Shown: positions 11,616-18,810, numbered from the stretch's first letter. The stretch is DNA of 64,000 nt from Peptococcaceae bacterium SCADC1_2_3 (GCA_000681355.2 JJNX02000003.1:12917-76916); one strand, 5' to 3'. Numbers and translations are program-made. The notes: generated by a model from the letters alone, not told the origin.

Positions 11616-11705
11616 ATGGCCAAAAGGATGCCGGTTAGTCTTTATTTTGGTATAGCTTTATTGGGTCTAGGAGGGATTATCTTAATTTTTGCCGTATTGT
11701 TTTAA
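11616..11705 (+). CDS. Possible 29-aa hydrophobic peptide (MAKRMPVSLYFGIALLGLGGIILIFAVLF)
   Basis: ATG preceded by AGGTGA. Single TM-like segment. Below the ORF-track size cutoff. No homology evidence. Confidence 0.2.
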   Translation: MAKRMPVSLYFGIALLGLGGIILIFAVLF

Positions 11706-11791
11706 GAGCCAAAGCTTACTCCTGCCATTCCCCCGGTAATGCCGGCTACCAAAGCCAGGACAAGCTTTAATCTTCTGTTGTCCGAAGACAT
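11702..11791 (-). pseudogene. 3'-terminal remnant or paralogous stub of the TIGR04086-like membrane protein gene (DR-A copy 1)
   Basis: 11702-11770 is about 88 percent identical to 17882-17950. It encodes ...KLVLALVAGITGGMAGVSFGS* versus ...KLVLALAAGITGGMAGISLSS* in the intact gene. Confidence 0.6.
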
Positions 11792-11898
11792 TTTTTAGTC
11801 GGGTTAATTTATTGTTGTTTTTTTCATGATTATGGTGTTTAATTTTTAGGATAGGATATTTTCAGGGCGGAAATTTATTGGATTTTTGTCTTGGAATC

Positions 11899-11928
11899 TT
11901 GACATGCATTTATTATGTTCACTAAAAT
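11899..11928 (+). promoter_or_regulatory. Candidate sigma-A promoter (TTGACA-N18-TAAAAT)
   Basis: Consensus -35 at 11899-11904 and TAAAAT at 11923-11928, in a very AT-rich tract upstream of the 12010-12587 genes. Confidence 0.35.
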
Positions 11929-12009
11929 TAGGGAAAAGAAAAGGTTAAGTGGGAGTAAATTTACTAAATATTTACTAATTATAAAATAATTATAGAAAAA
12001 GAAGTTAAC

Positions 12010-12084
12010 GTGAAAAAAGTTAAAAATATACCAAAGTTTGATAGGCCCCGTGAAAGGATGGAACAAAGAGGAGGTATTGGCTAA
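12010..12084 (+). pseudogene. RadC-like N-terminal stub (24 codons)
   Basis: VKKVKNIPKFDRPRERMEQRGGIG* resembles the RadC N-terminal motif (P..(D/E)RPRERL...G). The stop overlaps the ATG of the next ORF (TAATG). Confidence 0.35.
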
Positions 12085-12512
12085 TGCTTGAAAAAGAACA
12101 AAAAGAAAGATTTTTTATTGAGGAGTTAAAAATTATTCAGGATATTATCAAACGGATGGCTTTTGATTCTTTTATGATTAAAGGATGGGCTATTACCCTG
12201 GTGATCATTACTCTTCTTTTAAAAGGTGGTAGTTTTCAGGTCTTTATTTCCTTTATTCCTCTTCTGGTTTTCTGGTACCTTGACGCTTATTTTCTCTGGC
12301 AGGAAAGAATGTATAGAGAGTTGTATAACTGGGTTGTAAAAAACAGGCTCAAAACAGAAGACTTTCTCTTTGACCTGAATGCTTACAGATTTAAAGACAA
12401 AGTGCAGGGAAAGCTAAGGATAATGTTTTCTATTACCCTGGGGTGGTTTTATGGGTCCATAGCAGTGTTAATATTGGTATATGCCTTTTTTATTTTAAAA
12501 TGGGGGATTTAG
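12084..12512 (+). CDS. Small membrane protein, about 3 TM, unknown function (SLATT-like architecture is only an impression)
   Basis: 142 aa. N-terminal amphipathic helix followed by hydrophobic segments (GWAITLVIITLLL, VFISFIPLLVFWYL, MFSITLGWFYGSIAVLILVYAFFIL). Very AT-rich compared with its neighbours. Confidence 0.55.
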   Translation: MLEKEQKERFFIEELKIIQDIIKRMAFDSFMIKGWAITLVIITLLLKGGSFQVFISFIPLLVFWYLDAYFLWQERMYRELYNWVVKNRLKTEDFLFDLNAYRFKDKVQGKLRIMFSITLGWFYGSIAVLILVYAFFILKWGI

Positions 12513-12587
12513 ATGGCAAAAAGGGTATTCTTTAGTTTTCATTATGAAAGGGACATTTGGCGTGCGCAGGAAAAAGTTCCGGAATAA
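12513..12587 (+). pseudogene. TIR-like (DUF1863/ThsB-type) N-terminal stub (24 codons)
   Basis: MAKRVFFSFHYERDIWRAQEKVPE* matches the (K/R)VF(I/F)SFHY..D..R signature of MTH538-type TIR-like proteins. The ATG directly abuts the upstream stop. Confidence 0.4.
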
Positions 12588-12609
12588 TCTAAAGTGGGCT
12601 TAAGATAAG

Positions 12610-14847
12610 ATGAAAACGGGTAAAGAAGAAAAGACAAAAGAAAAGAAAGAGGAAAATCTAAACGGGAATAAAGCGCAACCTTACGAACAGTTGGAACTCT
12701 TTGCGCCGGAGGAAAAAGCCGTCCGAAAAACTAAACCGGCAAAAGAGGACTCCGGCAAAAACCCTTCCACCGCCAAAGATGTTCAAGAAAAGACAAGGCA
12801 AAAAACAACCCTGGAAGAAAGAAAAAAGGCCCGGAAAGAAACTCTCCGCTGGATAAAAACTTTAAACGCGCAACTTGACGAAGTAATCAAGCAATCCGGA
12901 AAAAGCTCCGAAGATATTCTTTTGGAAATACTAGGAGAAGCAATTTATGACCCGGCCCAACAAAAACAGCCTTTTAAACAGGTCGGCAAGAAAAACGTAG
13001 GCCCGGCCCCGACAATAAAGAAGGAGGCAATTCTTAAAGCTCAAGAAGAACTCGTCCCTAAAATGGAAAGTCAGGGGCAAAGGGAACAAAATCCCCAGGT
13101 TAAGGTAACTTTCTTTCCTGAAGAGGATGACCTTATATTAAACCTGGTCAAAAATGGCGCTGCTTCACCGGTTGCCGACCTTTACCTTCACCGGCAGGCA
13201 CTGGGCCTGCTTCTTTCGCCGGGTTTTGAGGTGCTGCTATCGGTTAAGGCTGCCCGGAACATTCAGTTGCTGGACTACCAGTTGGCTACGGTACACCACG
13301 TTTTAAAACATTTACGGGGGCGGGCGCTTTTATGCGATGAAGTGGGCCTGGGAAAGACCATCGAAGCAGGTCTGATTATGATGGAATACCTCCTGCGGGG
13401 CCTAGTCCGGCGCGTGCTGGTCCTTACCCCACCTTCCCTGGTGGAGCAGTGGCGTTTAGAAATGCAAACCAAGTTTAATCTTGATTTTGTTCCCTATGAT
13501 GCCCCTCTTTTCAAATCAACCCCCTGTCCCTGGGTAAATTTCCCTTATATTATTGCTTCCCTGGATACGGCCAAAAGGGAACCGCATCGGAACATGGTGC
13601 TGGAGCAGGTTTATGATTTGGTAATCGTTGACGAGGCCCACCACCTGAAAAAGCAAAAAACCCAGGCTTACCAGTTGGTAAGCCAGCTCAAAAAGAAATA
13701 CATGCTTTTGCTTACCGCCACTCCCGTAGAAAACGACTTGGAAGAATTGTTTAACCTGATTACTTTGCTCCAACCCGGCCAACTGGAAACCGCTTCTTCT
13801 TTTAAGCGTAAATATATCACTAGGGGGGATACATTAAAGCCAAAAAATACCGAAGAGTTAAAAAAACTGGTTCGGGAAGTAATGGTGCGAAACAGGCGGA
13901 GCGAAACGGGCGTAATTACGGCCAAACGCCACGCCGAGGTGGTGGAGGTAGCCTTTTCCCCGGAAGAAGCTGCTTTTTACCAACGGCTAACTTCTTTTGT
14001 ACGCGGCCATTACACCCAGGAAACAAGAAAAATTTCCGGGGGGGTAAACCAGTTTGTTTTAAAAATACTGCAGCGGGAAGTGGGCAGCAGTATTGAAGCA
14101 GTTCTGCCTACCCTGGAAAAAATGGCCCTTGGCGAAAATCACCCCTTATCTTTAAGGCGCGTTTTTCATGGTCTGGCCGAGCAGGCAAAAAGGGTGCCCT
14201 GCCGGGCCAAGGCCGAAGTGCTCGTACGCCTGCTGAAAAAGATCCCTGCAAAAGTGGTGGTATTTACCTGTTTTATGGAAACCATGAATTTTTTAGCCGC
14301 CCTTTTAGAAAAAGAAGGGTTTAGGGTAGCCAGGTTGGCCGGGGGGATGCGGCGGGCCGAAAAGGAAGCGCAAGTGCTTGCCTTTGCCGGCAAAGCCCAG
14401 GTACTGGTCTCCACCGAAACGGGGAGTGAAGGGCGTAACCTGCAGTTTTGCAACGTTATCATTAACTTTGATCTGCCCTGGAATCCCATGCGCATTGAAC
14501 AGCGCATTGGCCGTCTTCACCGCCTGGGGCAAACTAGGGATGTTTACATTTACAATTTATCGGCGGCCGAGACAGTGGAAGCCCATATTTTGGAATTACT
14601 GGACGCGAAGATTAACATGTTTCAGTTGGTGGTGGGGGAATTGGACATGATTTTAGGCAACTTGCAGGAAAAAAGGGATTTTGAGGACATAATCATGGAT
14701 ATTTGGGCCAGGGCAGCCGATGAAGCAAGCTTACATGCCGGGCTGGAGGATTTAGGCGAGAGGCTATCGGCCGTCAAAAAGCAATACTTGGCGGTAAAGG
14801 AAATTGATGAGCAGCTGTTGGGAGAATTATTGCCGGTAAAAGATTAA
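12610..14847 (+). CDS. SNF2-family (RapA/HepA-like) helicase/translocase with a long K/E-rich N-terminal extension
   Basis: 745 aa. Motif I LLCDEVGLGKTIEAG, motif II DEAHHLK, motif III LLLTATPVENDLEELFNL. C-terminal lobe GSEGRNLQ...DLPWNPMRIEQRIGRLHRLGQTRDVYIYNL. The first roughly 230 aa are low complexity. Confidence 0.85.
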   Translation: MKTGKEEKTKEKKEENLNGNKAQPYEQLELFAPEEKAVRKTKPAKEDSGKNPSTAKDVQEKTRQKTTLEERKKARKETLRWIKTLNAQLDEVIKQSGKSSEDILLEILGEAIYDPAQQKQPFKQVGKKNVGPAPTIKKEAILKAQEELVPKMESQGQREQNPQVKVTFFPEEDDLILNLVKNGAASPVADLYLHRQALGLLLSPGFEVLLSVKAARNIQLLDYQLATVHHVLKHLRGRALLCDEVGLGKTIEAGLIMMEYLLRGLVRRVLVLTPPSLVEQWRLEMQTKFNLDFVPYDAPLFKSTPCPWVNFPYIIASLDTAKREPHRNMVLEQVYDLVIVDEAHHLKKQKTQAYQLVSQLKKKYMLLLTATPVENDLEELFNLITLLQPGQLETASSFKRKYITRGDTLKPKNTEELKKLVREVMVRNRRSETGVITAKRHAEVVEVAFSPEEAAFYQRLTSFVRGHYTQETRKISGGVNQFVLKILQREVGSSIEAVLPTLEKMALGENHPLSLRRVFHGLAEQAKRVPCRAKAEVLVRLLKKIPAKVVVFTCFMETMNFLAALLEKEGFRVARLAGGMRRAEKEAQVLAFAGKAQVLVSTETGSEGRNLQFCNVIINFDLPWNPMRIEQRIGRLHRLGQTRDVYIYNLSAAETVEAHILELLDAKINMFQLVVGELDMILGNLQEKRDFEDIIMDIWARAADEASLHAGLEDLGERLSAVKKQYLAVKEIDEQLLGELLPVKD

Positions 14848-14933
14848 CTTTAAACCCTCCTTTAGGGTTTAAGCGAATTGACTTGCGGTACAAAAGACTT
14901 CGGCGAAAATTATGGTTAGAGGAGGAAAAGTTT

Positions 14934-15986
14934 ATGTTGCCGATCGAAAAAGTTAACCCCCGTTCCTTTATTACTGCTTATCTTGAACGGACCGGGGCTG
15001 TTTTAGGGGAAGCCGGTTATGAACTGCTGGAAGCGCTTTTACCTGAAGGACTGCCTTCTTTTAAAGACCAGGAGGAGCTTTTGCTGGCTTTTGACTATGA
15101 GGTGGCTCAGGAAAACCCAGAGGCAATCTTTGTTACTTACGGCAGCCTTTTTTTAGATAGGCTGGCGGAGCTGGCCACGGGCTATGGACGCTACACCGTC
15201 CTTTATGGCCCGGAGGGAAGTGTTAAACAGACAGAGTGGTTAGAGCAAGAGATTTTAAAAGAAATTGAGTTCAGGCATTGCCGCCTCCCAAAGGTTATCC
15301 ACAAGTGGCTAGAGGGGCATACCTTAAGGGGCTTTTACTTCCGGGCCGTATTTTCTTCATACGAAAAAACAGAGGAATTATTGGAAATTGTGGTGGATGG
15401 GTACACCGGCCTGGTAGTTCCTGATTTTACTGTCTGGTGGGGAAAGGTGATGGCAGTAGAAGAACCTTTCTGGCAGTTGCCCCGGGCAAAAAGTATTTCC
15501 CCGGGCAAATTATACCAGGCTGCCTGCCGGGAAGCAGAAAAGCAGGCCAAAGAGCGGGCATTAGTCTTTCAGTACCAGTCAAAAGAGCGGCTAAAAAAGG
15601 AATTGGACAAAGTATCCGGGTATTATATCCAGATGAGCCGGGAAATTAAAAATAAGCTTAAAGCAACCGAAGAAAAAGACAAAAGGGATCGCCTGGCAAA
15701 AAAGCTGGCGGCCGTAGAAGAAGAACGTCAGCGCCGGGAAAAGGATGCCCTTGAGCGCTACGCCATAGAAGTTGCATTGCACCTGGACCATATTGTGGAC
15801 TACCGCCTGCCCCGCCTGCACGTTAAGCTGGAAATACAACATAAAAAGCAGCTATTAAATACAACTGTCTTATACAACCTGTTGGCCCACCGCCTGGAAG
15901 CACCTGTTTGCCCCCTTTGCGGCCACCCTTCCCAATGCTTACTTCCGGACGATCAGGAAAACCGGTTTATCTGCCCCCGCCATTGA
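14934..15986 (+). CDS. Uncharacterized partner of the SNF2 helicase: coiled coil plus C-terminal zinc-ribbon-like motif (possibly YqhG-like)
   Basis: ATG at 14934 lies 7 nt after GGAGGAGG. The protein is 350 aa with a central K/E/R-rich coiled coil and the C-terminus CPLCGHPSQCLLPDDQENRFICPRH. From memory, the segment VTYGSLFLDRLAELATGYGRYTVLY resembles B. subtilis YqhG. Confidence 0.6.
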   Translation: MLPIEKVNPRSFITAYLERTGAVLGEAGYELLEALLPEGLPSFKDQEELLLAFDYEVAQENPEAIFVTYGSLFLDRLAELATGYGRYTVLYGPEGSVKQTEWLEQEILKEIEFRHCRLPKVIHKWLEGHTLRGFYFRAVFSSYEKTEELLEIVVDGYTGLVVPDFTVWWGKVMAVEEPFWQLPRAKSISPGKLYQAACREAEKQAKERALVFQYQSKERLKKELDKVSGYYIQMSREIKNKLKATEEKDKRDRLAKKLAAVEEERQRREKDALERYAIEVALHLDHIVDYRLPRLHVKLEIQHKKQLLNTTVLYNLLAHRLEAPVCPLCGHPSQCLLPDDQENRFICPRH

Positions 15987-16004
15987 AGTAAAATCAAAGA
16001 AAAA
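15866..16004. repeat. Direct repeat DR-B copy 1 (last 121 nt of the partner CDS plus 18 nt)
   Basis: Near-identical to 17724-17862 (two differences seen, including one extra C in copy 2). Confidence 0.9.
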
Positions 16005-16049
16005 ATCACTCCGGGAGCGGTCATCTTTTGTTTTCTCGGTTCTCAATGC

Positions 16050-16286
16050 TCATAACCACGGGGATATTGCTCTTCCTGGATGCCCGGACAGCATTAATTT
16101 GTTGTTCAAGGGGAAGGCCTCAATTTTAGCTTCGTCGTCTATTAAATCTTGTCGGTTAGTCATTCTGTGGCACATTATATACCGTTTAATCCAGTCACAG
16201 TATGTTCGCTCCGTATGTATCGAATAGTGACGAAGCCGCATTACATCCTGTATTTCATCAAGCAGTTTTCTGTTCTTAGGGTGTTT
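16050..16286 (-). pseudogene. intI: Integron-integrase (IntI) N-terminal fragment
   Basis: KNRKLLDEIQDVMRLRHYSIHTERTYCDWIKRYIMCHRMTNRQDLIDDEAKIEAF aligns by eye with IntI1 [48 protein letters not shown]. There is no catalytic domain and an in-frame stop lies upstream. Confidence 0.6.
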
Positions 16287-16293
16287 TTAGGTG

Positions 16294-16323
16294 TTGACAT
16301 TTGGCGCTCCTACCTGTTAGCAT
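16294..16323 (+). promoter_or_regulatory. Candidate cassette (Pc-like) promoter TTGACA-N18-TAGCAT
   Basis: Consensus -35 at 16294-16299 at the intI-proximal end, oriented toward the cassettes. Confidence 0.3.
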
Positions 16324-16397
16324 ATTAACAAAATTGAAGATAATACGGCAAGGCAAATTTGCCTGTCAATCAATGGTTGGCTGAAGTGAGATAGAAA

Positions 16398-16655
16398 ATG
16401 AAAAAGACTAATCCACGATTAAAGCGCGCATTCTTGGACATAGTTGACAAGCAGCTTGAAGCTAATGATCCTCCGCAAACGCGGGAGACGTTCGAGCGAC
16501 TCAAGGCAGAGGGCATCTCACAATCAGATGCGAAGATTTACATCGCTCAGGCGGTGTGTCTTGAGGTGTGGGATATCCTGAGAAACAAGAGGGAATTCAA
16601 TGTGAAACGGTATCTTCGCAACCTGAAGAACCTTCCTCAGGAACCCGAAGAATAA
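16398..16655 (+). CDS. Cassette ORF 1, small hypothetical protein (DUF1841-like impression)
   Basis: 85-aa ORF with an upstream purine-rich RBS, followed at once by an attC-like site. Confidence 0.45.
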   Translation: MKKTNPRLKRAFLDIVDKQLEANDPPQTRETFERLKAEGISQSDAKIYIAQAVCLEVWDILRNKREFNVKRYLRNLKNLPQEPEE

Positions 16656-16658
16656 AGC

Positions 16659-16718
16659 AGCTAATCAAGGGTTCCAGCGTACGCCGCTATGCAGCGCCGC
16701 TGAACCCGAACGTTAGGC
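16659..16718 (+). other. attC-like recombination site 1
   Basis: Imperfect palindrome gctaatcaagggttccagcg...cgctgaacccgaacGTTAGGC, about 60 bp, ending in the GTTRRRY core. Confidence 0.45.
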
Positions 16719-16732
16719 GGAAGGAATGCTGA

Positions 16733-16975
16733 ATGAAATTCACCCAATATTTTCTTGCTATCAGAAAACGACCTGACCGTGCTAAAATAAAAGATGAATG
16801 GATCGAAGATACTATCAGAAACCCAATATATTCTGAGATTCAGACGGACGGAAGAATGAGAATATGGAAAAGAATCGAAGAAGAAGGCAAATTTTTACGA
16901 GTTATTTTGCTTCCTGACGGGGAAACCGTTCATAATGCTTTCTTCGACAGAAGCTTTAAAGGAGAAAAACGATGA
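16733..16975 (+). CDS. Putative toxin of a DUF4258/DUF2283-type pair
   Basis: 80 aa with a 4-nt ATGA overlap with the next ORF. The C-terminal LRVILLPDGETVHNAFFDR resembles DUF4258-type proteins (from memory). Confidence 0.45.
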   Translation: MKFTQYFLAIRKRPDRAKIKDEWIEDTIRNPIYSEIQTDGRMRIWKRIEEEGKFLRVILLPDGETVHNAFFDRSFKGEKR

Positions 16976-17214
16976 AAATTAGATATTTTTCCGACACAGA
17001 TACCGCACTGGTTGAATTTTCTGAGAGAGAAGTCTTTGAGACCAGAGAAATTAATGAGAATATCTATATTGACTTGGATGCCTCCGGCAATTTAGTGGCT
17101 ATGACAATTGAACATGCCCGTCAACAAGCGAGCCTTCCCTACTTATCCTACGAACAGATAGATGAAGAGTCGCCTAACAAATCGCTGCAGCGGACCGCCT
17201 CCGGCGGCTGCTGA
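16972..17214 (+). CDS. DUF2283 family protein (putative antitoxin)
   Basis: MKIRYFSDTDTALVEFSEREV...IDLDASGNLVAMTIEHA matches the DUF2283 pattern (YD.E.D.LYI......D.D..G.lvGIEI). Confidence 0.6.
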   Translation: MKIRYFSDTDTALVEFSEREVFETREINENIYIDLDASGNLVAMTIEHARQQASLPYLSYEQIDEESPNKSLQRTASGGC

Positions 17215-17229
17215 ATTCCAACGTTAGCC
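17172..17229 (+). other. attC-like recombination site 2
   Basis: GCCTAAC (17172-17178) ... GTTAGCC (17223-17229) inverse core sites flank an imperfect palindrome of about 58 bp that overlaps the cassette stop codon. Confidence 0.55.
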
Positions 17230-17242
17230 CAAAGGGGAGACA

Positions 17243-17614
17243 ATGAGCGAAACCGTTTTTAAGCAAGTCAATTACGACCTGAATGCGCTGATCAAGTATA
17301 TCGAACTGGGTGAGATCGGCCTGCCCGATATTCAGCGCCCGTTTGTCTGGAAAAACGCCAAAGTGCGGGATTTGTTCGACTCCATGTACCGGGGTTATCC
17401 GGTGGGGTACTTGCTGTTCTGGCAAAACGAGTTTTTCGATGATACTCACGTTATCGGCACGGATACTAAACAAAAAACCCCGCGCCTGTTAATCGTGGAC
17501 GGCCAGCAACGGCTAACGTCCCTCTACGCTGTTTTGAAAAAGATTGAGGTCGTCCGCGAAAACTATGGCCGCGAACTGATTAATATTGCATTTAATCCGC
17601 AGCTGATAAATTAA
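17243..17614 (+). pseudogene. DUF262 (GmrSD/ParB-like nuclease N-terminal domain) fragment
   Basis: LPDIQRPFVWKNAKVRDLFDSMYRGYPVGYLLFW and DGQQRLTSL motifs. Only 123 aa, whereas full-length family members are several hundred aa. Confidence 0.65.
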
Positions 17615-17723
17615 AAAGGCTGGCATTGATGCTCAAACAGCTTTTTTAATAGCATTAGACGCAGGAAGAAATTTAGTTGATATGGGTAAAAGATATTAAA
17701 TGATCCCCCTGTAAAAACTCCTT

Positions 17724-17862
17724 TGTCTTATACAACCTGTTGGCCCACCGCCTGGAAGCGCCTGTTTGCCCCCCTTTGCGGCCACCCTTCCAAATGCTTA
17801 CTTCCGGACGATCAGGAAAACCGGTTTATCTGCCCCCGCCATTGAAGTAAAATCAAAGAAAA
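17724..17862. repeat. Direct repeat DR-B copy 2 (frameshifted copy of the 3' end of the SNF2-partner gene)
   Basis: Near-identical to 15866-16004, with gcccccctttgcgg instead of gccccctttgcgg and caaatgc instead of ccaatgc. Confidence 0.9.
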
Positions 17863-17881
17863 GGCAACCTTTTAATAACTT

Positions 17882-18286
17882 TTAAGAGCTCAAGCTTATT
17901 CCCGCCATTCCCCCGGTAATGCCGGCTGCCAAAGCTAGGACAAGCTTTAACCCTAAGGGAGCCATGGATATGGAAAAGGAAAAAAATACGGCCGCCGTAA
18001 TTAAAGCCAGCAAAAGGAAAAGCACTGCTACCCCTAAGCCGTGGAATACTCCTTTATTTTTTGCTTGTTGAGCGGTCCACCCGGCCCCTAAAAAAACGCT
18101 AAGAAAAAATAAGCCGTTTATTAACCAGGGCAAACTGCTTTCGGTAAAATTAGCAAAATAATAAACAAGCCCAATAATAACACTCCCCAAAATAGATACA
18201 GCCAAACTTAACAAGGTCCCTTTAATTATAGCCAGCCAGTTTAGGAAAGCACTCCGTTCTTGTTTTAAAACAACCACCTTTTTCAC
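17882..18286 (-). CDS. TIGR04086/YrzE-like small integral membrane protein
   Basis: 134 aa with 4 predicted TM segments and a glycine-rich C-terminal TM (LALAAGITGGMAGISLSS). Its 3' 69 nt form DR-A copy 2. Confidence 0.6.
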   Translation of the reverse strand: MKKVVVLKQERSAFLNWLAIIKGTLLSLAVSILGSVIIGLVYYFANFTESSLPWLINGLFFLSVFLGAGWTAQQAKNKGVFHGLGVAVLFLLLALITAAVFFSFSISMAPLGLKLVLALAAGITGGMAGISLSS

Positions 18287-18356
18287 CTCTTGCCTTTAGA
18301 ATAAAATAAAAGATTTGTAACCGGAGAATATTTTAATATTTGTAACTACCCAGGTT

Positions 18357-18385
18357 CAAAGGCACAAAGGCACAAAGGCACAAAG
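18357..18385. repeat. Octamer array CAAAGGCA x3
   Basis: caaaggcacaaaggcacaaaggcacaaag, partly complementary to the ctttgctcctctgtgcct repeats nearby. Confidence 0.8.
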
Positions 18386-18386
18386 T

Positions 18387-18424
18387 GTTTTCATTCCCCT
18401 TTGCTCCTCTGTGCCTACCTGAAT
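18387..18424. repeat. Direct repeat copy 1 (leader plus first 3 codons of the four-helix-bundle gene)
   Basis: gttttcattcccctttgctcctctgtgcctacctgaat recurs at 18591-18643 with a 14-nt internal duplication. Confidence 0.85.
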
Positions 18425-18590
18425 AGAGTTTCGACCATAACCTTCCGCCATGTTGCTGGGAATTGAAATCGCGCAACGTCTCATTTGAGAAGTTAATCCG
18501 TAAACTTCATCCTTGGGAAACCCTTTAGAAATCTTATATATTTCAGTAACTAAAGTCATTGATTTTTGCCAGACTTGCAGATCTCTATAT

Positions 18591-18643
18591 GTTTTCATTC
18601 CCCTTTGCTCCTCTGTGCCTTTGCCCCTCTGTGCCTACCTGAA
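18591..18643. repeat. Direct repeat copy 2 (leader of the four-helix-bundle gene)
   Basis: gttttcattcccctttgctcctctgtgcctttgcccctctgtgcctacctgaat. Confidence 0.85.
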
Positions 18644-18810
18644 TGGTTATATTAATTCTATGTAATAAACTAAAGAAAATATAACCTTTAAACCAGAAAA
18701 TAAAGCAGTCGAAAAATTGGAAAATGTGTTGGTAAATTTTGCTTTAAATAAGCAGGAAATTAAAGGAGGTAAAGAGAAATAATGTATTGAGGAGGGATGT
18801 TGAAGTGCTT

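Follow-up and report, generated by a model that had tools for sequence, protein, structure and literature searches.

Integrons are rarely reported from Firmicutes, and a 64,000-nt stretch of the genome of Peptococcaceae bacterium SCADC1_2_3 (GCA_000681355.2, JJNX02000003.1:12917-76916; hereafter the window, with positions counted from its first letter) raises the question of whether a chromosome of this phylum once housed an integron and what has become of it. A survey of complete genomes published in 2016 found integrons lacking in Firmicutes (PMC4889954), and a survey of 2022 listed one complete Firmicute integron, that of Limnochorda pilosa HC45, together with a few clusters of attC sites lacking integron integrase, or CALINs (PMC9024848); the authors called the absence of Firmicute integrons unexplained (PMC4889954, PMC9024848). 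The literature therefore agrees with an earlier note on this DNA, which had described integrons as rare or absent in the phylum and had proposed that a degenerate one lies in the window. Our analysis indicates that the block 16005-17723 is very probably the remnant of a chromosomal (sedentary) integron. Its parts are given below; G006 is a genome of the same family but another genus, G031 one of the same order but another family, and R1 is the covariance model for attC sites described further on.

16005-16046, no strand: hairpin followed by a T-run (16007-16019), terminator-like, located after the gene that partners an SNF2 helicase gene; also present in G006
16047-16300, minus strand: intI pseudogene stub, recognised by PF13495, TIGR02249 and DNA identity to the intI of G031
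16294-16323, plus strand: candidate cassette promoter (Pc-like), TTGACA-N18-TAGCAT with TG before the -10 box, 10 of 12 consensus matches, pointing into the cassettes
16324-16382, plus strand: attI region, with a conserved GGCAAATTTGCC palindrome and the crossover motif GTTGGCT at 16376-16382
16340-16369, minus strand: candidate integrase promoter (Pint-like), TTGACA-N18-TATTAT, 11 of 12 consensus matches, facing intI from within the attI region
16377-16712, plus strand: cassette 1, an 85-aa open reading frame (ORF; 16398-16655, DUF1841-like) plus attC1
16659-16718, plus strand: attC1, ending in GTTAGGC; R1 17.4 bits, E 0.022
16713-17223, plus strand: cassette 2, two overlapping 80-aa ORFs (16733-16975 and 16972-17214) plus attC2
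17172-17229, plus strand: attC2, GCCTAAC...GTTAGCC; R1 48.4 bits, E 2.9e-11, the minus strand scoring 18.1 bits
17224-17605, plus strand: cassette 3, truncated; ORF 17243-17614 (123 aa), holding the first 121 codons of a protein of about 751 aa with DUF262 and PF04326

The strongest evidence for the cassette nature of these units comes, in our reading of the sequences, from the comparison with G006. This genome agrees with the window in the partner gene, the terminator, the stub, cassette 1 and the beginning of cassette 3, but an unrelated two-gene cassette (cassette 2') stands between cassettes 1 and 3. Homology between the window and G006 breaks exactly at the GTTAGG of attC1 and is restored exactly at the GTTAGCC in the following attC. 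A close counterpart of cassette 2' (93.4% identity over 648 bp) is cassette 2 of G009, another genome of the class, whose integron is complete (312-aa intI, 381.7 bits) and belongs to a different intI/attI lineage, with no DNA similarity to the stub of the window. The same cassette is thus found in two arrays with different integrase lineages.

The stub itself is the 5' end of an integron integrase gene. The earlier note had described the minus-strand frame 16050-16286 as the N-terminal domain of such an integrase, and this holds, with a true extent that is somewhat larger (16047-16300). The 78-aa frame 16050-16286 matches PF13495 (Phage_int_SAM_4, E 2.8e-8), and the stub matches positions 1-49 of TIGR02249, the integron integrase model (E 1.5e-9, 37.6 bits against a cut-off of 265). 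Its sole other NCBIfam match is PRK15417, likewise an integron integrase, and no XerC or XerD model of NCBIfam matches it at E<=0.1; by homology it therefore falls with TIGR02249 and not with Xer or phage integrases. At the DNA level, G031 matches 16112-16336 at 82% and 16047-16113 at 88% identity, on two mutually overlapping contig ends (C108/C142). The integrase of G031 scores 408.5 bits on TIGR02249 and has the IntI-specific patch and the catalytic motifs, while on the NF011946/PRK15417 equivalog it reaches 274.7 bits, under the 435-bit cut-off.

These references also reveal how the stub has decayed. The start ATG lies at 16300. From there to 16113 the stub holds codons 1 to about 63, in which comparison with G006 shows the loss of 1 nt near 16279. 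Relative to G031, a 95-nt internal deletion is found at 16112/16113, beyond which a further intI piece of 66 nt (16112-16047) remains. Everything past about codon 115 is missing, so that the catalytic two-thirds are gone, and the remnant abuts the terminator-like hairpin; G006 has the sequence of the window in common up to 16052.

The attC sites were sought with R1, whose six seeds all lie outside the window and have no homology to the attC sites in it. The complete integron of G009 supplied two of them, G031 and cassette 2' of G006 one each, and other contigs of the host metagenome-assembled genome (MAG) the remaining two. As a positive control, R1 was applied to the flanks of 80 bona fide IntI genes from other phyla, where it finds 39 sites; for 36 of the 39, intI is on the opposite strand, and nearly all of these sites lie 5' of it. 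Both of the palindromes that the earlier note had singled out as attC-like, at 17172-17229 and ending at 16718, are recovered by this independent model on the plus strand, and R1 gives no further match at E<1 in the window save the reverse strand of attC2. The boxes expected of an attC site (R'' RYYYAAC, R' GTTRRRY) are present in both, the R'' of attC1 in degenerate form; strand asymmetry is seen at attC2, and attC1 scores only 17.4 bits. The bottom strand of attC1 folds with a bulged G in the L box, and its last 6 nt formally belong to cassette 2; the two sites are 454 nt apart. Regular-expression attC finders were dropped in favour of the covariance model, as they missed the sites of the window and returned many false pairs, and a scan of 14-20 kb with Rfam, which is without an attC model, gave chance-level matches only.

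On the other side of the array, a three-way alignment of the window, G006 and G031 shows that the three have in common both promoter-like sites, the GGCAAATTTGCC palindrome and the motif GGTT(G/A)GC. Homology between the window and G031 ends directly past this motif, because their first cassettes differ. We read the breakpoint as the signature of attI, with the predicted crossover G|TT at 16376/16377; by this comparison it is the junction between the intI side and the first cassette. In G009, the sequence ...GTTAGCC precedes the first cassette. The TTGACA-N18-TAGCAT promoter that had been noted as pointing into the array is indeed present as a candidate site at 16294-16323; its -35 box overlaps the intI start codon on the opposite strand, and the site is kept in G006 (with TAGTAT) and in G031 (as TTGACA-N17-TATAAT). 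The TTGACA of the Pint-like site is invariant in the alignment.

Three cassette-like units diverging from the stub had been described on the plus strand, and we find their boundaries at G|TT, the third unit being truncated. The ORF of cassette 1 reaches 22.3 bits on DUF1841, below the cut-off of 24. Compared with G006, cassette 1 is 97% identical in nucleotides, and 83 of the 85 amino acids are the same; five changes are synonymous and two non-synonymous (pS 0.09, pN 0.01, pN/pS about 0.1). The two ORFs of cassette 2 overlap start to stop in ATGA. The second matches DUF2283 (58.8 bits), and the first, for which no Pfam match was found at E<=0.1, has a weak Atlas lead to clusters in which 24% of the members carry DUF4258; the cassette may accordingly be described as a putative toxin-antitoxin-like pair. 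Paired homologues of both proteins (58% and 45% identity) occur in Salinisphaera orenii MK-B5 (L111:3508-3914), just past the 3' end of an integron integrase gene and on the opposite strand. As for cassette 3, its product scores 82.3 bits on GmrSD_N, and its full-length relatives, 751 aa long and 85-91% identical, are found in many phyla. Homology ends at residue 121 (17605), so that of a full GmrSD/DUF262 nuclease (about 750 aa, DUF262 plus a C-terminal effector) only residues 1-121 are present. The G006 copy retains residues 1-26 and about 133-175, and the two must therefore derive by independent deletions from a longer ancestor.

Taken together, these features suggest an original layout in which attI and an array of cassettes on the plus strand lay opposite a minus-strand intI, and Pint and Pc stood back to back in the 90-nt space between intI and the cassettes. 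Decay has destroyed the integrase by loss of its catalytic two-thirds, the 95-nt internal deletion and the 1-nt frameshift, and has left the promoter/attI module and three cassettes. Such a locus should be unable to recombine on its own. Transcription of cassettes 1 and 2, both of which appear to be under constraint, probably still starts from Pc, and further exchange of cassettes would need an integrase acting in trans or homologous recombination with another array.

How far such exchange continues is the point at which a first alternative has to be weighed, namely that the array is still an active platform, its local intI dead and its cassettes served in trans by the other integrases of the population. 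The junction between the terminator of the partner gene and the truncated intI (16005-16052) is common to the host MAG (G000) and G006, and the truncation of intI is therefore probably older than the split between the two, yet cassette 2 differs between them. This inference is limited by the length of the shared intI-derived sequence, about 6 nt, and homologous recombination with an array having cassettes 1 and 3 would give the same breakpoints. The presence of the replacement cassette in the complete integron of G009 also speaks for continuing traffic, as does a population variant (L027:4500-6464) that is 99.5% identical up to position 17214 and there changes to another 3' half of attC2, with some 770 nt of non-coding, AT-rich DNA and an IS630-type (DDE_3) transposase where cassette 3 would lie. 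Furthermore, some metagenome contigs place cassette 1, or attC2 alone, in other surroundings, the breaks falling at cassette boundaries, and 3 of the 162 genomes of the class have an apparently intact IntI. On the other hand, no IntI above the TIGR02249 cut-off is found in the host MAG (89.8% complete), and more than 20 contigs from many samples have the array at 99-100% identity, a sign of stability. On balance we regard an active platform as possible but rather unlikely.

One contig of metagenome run X12 (885 nt) carries cassette 1 (16383-16664) behind an unrelated 5' flank that starts a few bases from the attI crossover; it passes from 16664 to sequence matching 17870 onward, with unknown letters between.

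As an integron remnant, the locus can be placed among known systems. A complete integron has an intI with the IntI-specific domain and catalytic residues within 4 kb of attC, and no such gene is present here. Two close attC sites, called with R1, without an integron integrase within 4 kb make the element, as judged from its sequence, a CALIN with a recognisable intI pseudogene in IntegronFinder terms (Cury et al. 2016, PMC4889954; IntegronFinder 2.0, PMC9024848). Like other CALINs, it combines two attC sites with promoterless cassettes in one orientation and no functional integrase nearby. CALINs are thought to stem from sedentary integrons by loss of intI; unlike in a typical one, the intI pseudogene, attI and the putative Pc/Pint module are recognisable at the locus, and the route from integron to CALIN is therefore visible. 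A truncated last cassette and a bracketing 139-bp duplication of host-island sequence set it further apart.

Sedentary chromosomal integrons with an inactivated intI are known, for example the Xanthomonas arrays next to ilvD. Those arrays are likewise chromosomal, with small cassettes of unassigned function and toxin-antitoxin cassettes, and have persisted while frameshifts and deletions decayed the integrase; they differ from the present one, which has only three cassettes and lies in a 6.2-kb island of an endospore-forming Firmicute and not at a conserved housekeeping locus. The Limnochorda pilosa HC45 integron, likened here by description, also belongs to a genome classified in Firmicutes, but it is complete. 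With the class 1 platform the locus shares the divergent arrangement of intI and cassettes, the back-to-back candidate promoters around attI, the G|TT crossover and attC sites with R''/L''/L'/R' boxes and an extrahelical base in L''. The two differ in the place of Pc: here the Pc-like site is immediately upstream of the intI start, in class 1 it lies deep within the gene. The locus also has no Tn402 or 3'-conserved segment context and no resistance genes. The locus thus adds to a known kind of system, in a phylum rarely reported for it, and involves no new mechanism.

The remnant sits in a 6.2-kb island (11771-17879) that carries the SNF2 helicase gene (PF00176/PF00271), its 367-aa partner gene to the left of the remnant, and the remnant itself. 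A scan of genome contigs with the partner protein found no relatives. The features that frame the remnant within this island are the following.

11700-11770 and 17880-17950: outer direct repeat, the 3' end of a DUF3792 gene, about 70 bp at 92% identity, bounding the 6.2-kb island
15866-16004, plus strand: direct repeat copy 1, made up of the SNF2-partner gene's final 121 nt (stop 15984-15986) and 18 nt more
17606-17723, no strand: AT-rich filler of 118 nt, 32% GC
17724-17862, plus strand: direct repeat copy 2, an isolated fragment with an extra C after 17769
17863-17879, no strand: 17-nt spacer following copy 2, after which the DUF3792 gene 3' end begins

The 139-bp repeat reported by the earlier note as bracketing the block, with a frameshifted second copy, is present as described: the copies differ by A/G at 15902, C/A at 15933 and the one extra C, which causes the frameshift in copy 2. 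Copy 1 is the true 3' end of the partner gene. It has two derived substitutions relative to G006 and G003, whereas copy 2 has the G006/G003 base at both sites; copy 1, in turn, has the ancestral length. Both copies must therefore come from one sequence within the lineage. No microhomology is evident at the 17723/17724 and 16004/16005 junctions, and the filler has no match in the genome or in the loci compared, apart from copies of the same array.

The repeat may be a by-product of how the array-bearing DNA was joined to the chromosome, an explanation that we consider about evenly balanced between true and false. On one plausible route a homologous crossover, within the partner gene or to its left, would have let the array DNA in, and the array's broken right end would have undergone an illegitimate join to a point 139 bp short of where the resident partner-gene sequence ends. 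Such an entry would amount to homology-facilitated illegitimate recombination or, equivalently, to single-crossover entry of a circle.

Alternatively, the repeat could be no insertion footprint but the residue of a more extensive duplication, in which two copies of the SNF2-partner operon, or of the island, flanked the array; a later deletion would have begun within cassette 3 and stopped 139 bp short of the end of the second partner gene. The surroundings lend themselves to such events, since the region is full of truncated gene pieces and nested repeats, and the outer 70-bp repeat could drive unequal crossing-over. The independent truncations of cassette 3 in G000 and G006 indicate that deletions are frequent here. 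In addition, the genus-mate G001, which has the CCTTTTAATAAC of the spacer in common with the window, carries another truncated gene fused to this same spacer. However, this course of events needs more steps, no second SNF2 or partner copy or fragment is seen beyond the 139 bp, and the 118-nt filler matches nothing in the island, so that we find a trimmed duplication doubtful. The G001 locus (L021:1-230) is a truncated AbrB/VapB-like and PIN/VapC-like pair fused to the CCTTTTAATAAC spacer; different truncated genes have therefore been joined at one point beside the DUF3792 gene.

The earlier note had suggested looking in relatives for the empty site, a single 139-bp copy, and in this form it was not found: the genus-mate G002 has coaBC, a small ORF and DUF3792, with the whole 6.2-kb island absent, and G003 has the island with an MMPL transporter gene at the place of the integron remnant. 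Among the contigs of four metagenome runs, none joins 16004 to 17863, although coverage is patchy and uninformative either way.

Several observations weigh against an integron origin of the block or against parts of it. By the model alone attC1 is marginal (E 0.022 in the window, 0.88 genome-wide), and its R'' box is degenerate (AGCTAAT). The fold energy of neither attC exceeds that of shuffled sequence (z -1.0 to -1.8) and is therefore not counted as evidence. Cassette 3 is without an attC, and the sequence at the right-hand junction (17606-17723) has no match outside copies of the array. The search for a pre-insertion allele, in which one 139-bp copy would adjoin the DUF3792 gene, found none, so that the origin given for the repeat is a proposal. 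The evidence for the two promoters consists of consensus matches, and that for a toxin-antitoxin pair in cassette 2 of a single Pfam match (DUF2283), the gene overlap and the weak Atlas lead.

Some of these points could be taken to mean that there was never an integron, and that a phage- or Xer-type tyrosine recombinase remnant lies beside toxin-antitoxin genes and palindromes that resemble attC, similar to repetitive extragenic palindromic (REP) elements. The Phage_int_SAM_4 domain is indeed not exclusive to IntI, and the attC sites fold no better than shuffles. Nevertheless, integron-integrase models are the only ones to match the stub, whose DNA has 82% identity to a gene that reaches 408 bits on TIGR02249; R1 recognises attC sites by IntI genes of other phyla on the right strand and side; and the cassette replacement occurs exactly at G|TT. 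These results largely refute the proposal, which we consider very improbable.

It is still less credible that an assembler joined an integron of Desulfobacterota or of another Gram-negative community member to Firmicute DNA in a mis-binned or chimeric contig: the genome is a MAG of 259 contigs and the closest relatives of the G031-type IntI are found in Desulfobacterota, Verrucomicrobiota and Dehalococcoidia MAGs (74-78% amino acid identity, in a search that listed other phyla only), but the contig, 90 kb long, encloses the remnant between coaBC-rpoZ-gmk-remA on one side and DUF3792/queCDE on the other, genes whose synteny is kept in genus-mates, the same junctions appear in independent NCBI, JGI and ENA assemblies, and the GC content is typical of the genome.

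The same array between the same Firmicute genes is present in more than 20 contigs of these assemblies and in runs of about eight studies, from hydrocarbon, oil-facility and groundwater metagenomes. The host assembly, a MAG of 2.59 Mb with 42.9% GC, scores 416.6 bits with the Spo0A profile (cut-off 200, exceeded by 1 of 14 control genomes), and the gene set yicC-remA-gmk-rpoZ-coaBC adjoins the locus. For these two reasons we take the host of the remnant to be an endospore-forming Firmicute, and the earlier assignment of the chromosome to this phylum stands. The claim that the block is of foreign composition does not: the insert 16005-17723 has 44.1% GC, the genome has a mean of 43.0% (standard deviation 4.1%), and 36% of the genome windows of equal size are at least as GC-rich. 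With an insert so ordinary for its genome, the composition argument fails. It is the small membrane gene (34% GC), unlike the cassettes, that is the outlier in composition.

Other integrons occur in the relatives and in the MAG itself. TIGR02249 matches above the cut-off were found in 5 of the 162 genomes of the class, here a single order (G009, G045, G047, G031 and G006), and in 2 of the 401 genomes of an even phylum sample, in which G539 has two IntI matches. The intI of G031 has a 1-nt frameshift near codon 40, close to a contig end, which may be an assembly error, and the second intI of G006 has an in-frame TGA. In the host MAG, 12 contigs carry a total of 19 R1 sites at E<0.01, including the two that served as seeds. 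A second decayed integron lies on contig C2 at about 67.7-71.5 kb (L007:1-1860), with a 5' intI stub beside hemL. This stub, a 208-aa frame that covers IntI positions 2-101 (79.6 bits), ends abruptly against hemL, and divergent cassettes accompany it: the opposite strand carries small ORFs of toxin-antitoxin-like type, and R1 sites lie at C2:69574-69635 and 67778-67866, both on the minus strand.

These observations allow a wider proposal for this class of uncultured spore-formers from oil and groundwater, which we offer tentatively and would not yet back: integrons may repeatedly enter these Firmicutes and repeatedly lose their integrase, while cassettes persist, scatter and are still shuffled in trans. 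The basis for repeated entry is that the closest IntI relatives belong to Desulfobacterota and similar lineages; for repeated loss, the two 5' intI stubs in the host MAG, the frameshift in G031 and the in-frame stop in G006; and for persistence, the presence of cassettes spread across a dozen loci with few intact integrases in the class. If true, the clade would be a natural experiment on why integrons fail to establish in Gram-positives. The locus presents a Firmicute chromosome with what appears to be the whole anatomy of an integron in decay, and it documents cassette traffic in anaerobic hydrocarbon-degrading communities. The IntI of G009, G045 and G047, together with attC and attI sites, would provide material for testing IntI function and tolerance in Gram-positive hosts.

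A few further observations concern the surroundings. The small integron of G031 (L018, L019:1-2000), with intI, attI and two cassettes, lies between modB- and modC-like molybdate transporter genes. The attC-model sites of the host MAG include some on contigs C38, C73, C22, C43, C95, C4 and C13, as well as C3:809-876 and C3:11414-11501 just upstream of the window; some adjoin C-terminal IntI fragments on the same strand (C22:24946-25182, C95, C73), which is not the canonical divergent layout. Within the 6.2-kb island, just upstream of the SNF2 gene, a short ORF (12514-12588) starting MAKRVFFSFHYERDIWRAQ resembles the beginning of a TIR-like (DUF1863-type) protein that breaks off after 24 codons. 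Finally, the region 18337-18700, around a 23S-rRNA-IVS-protein gene (18356-18598, PF05635), stands out in all four metagenome runs by a very high summed depth of contigs and by numerous alternative joints, and appears to be a multi-copy or widely shared element.

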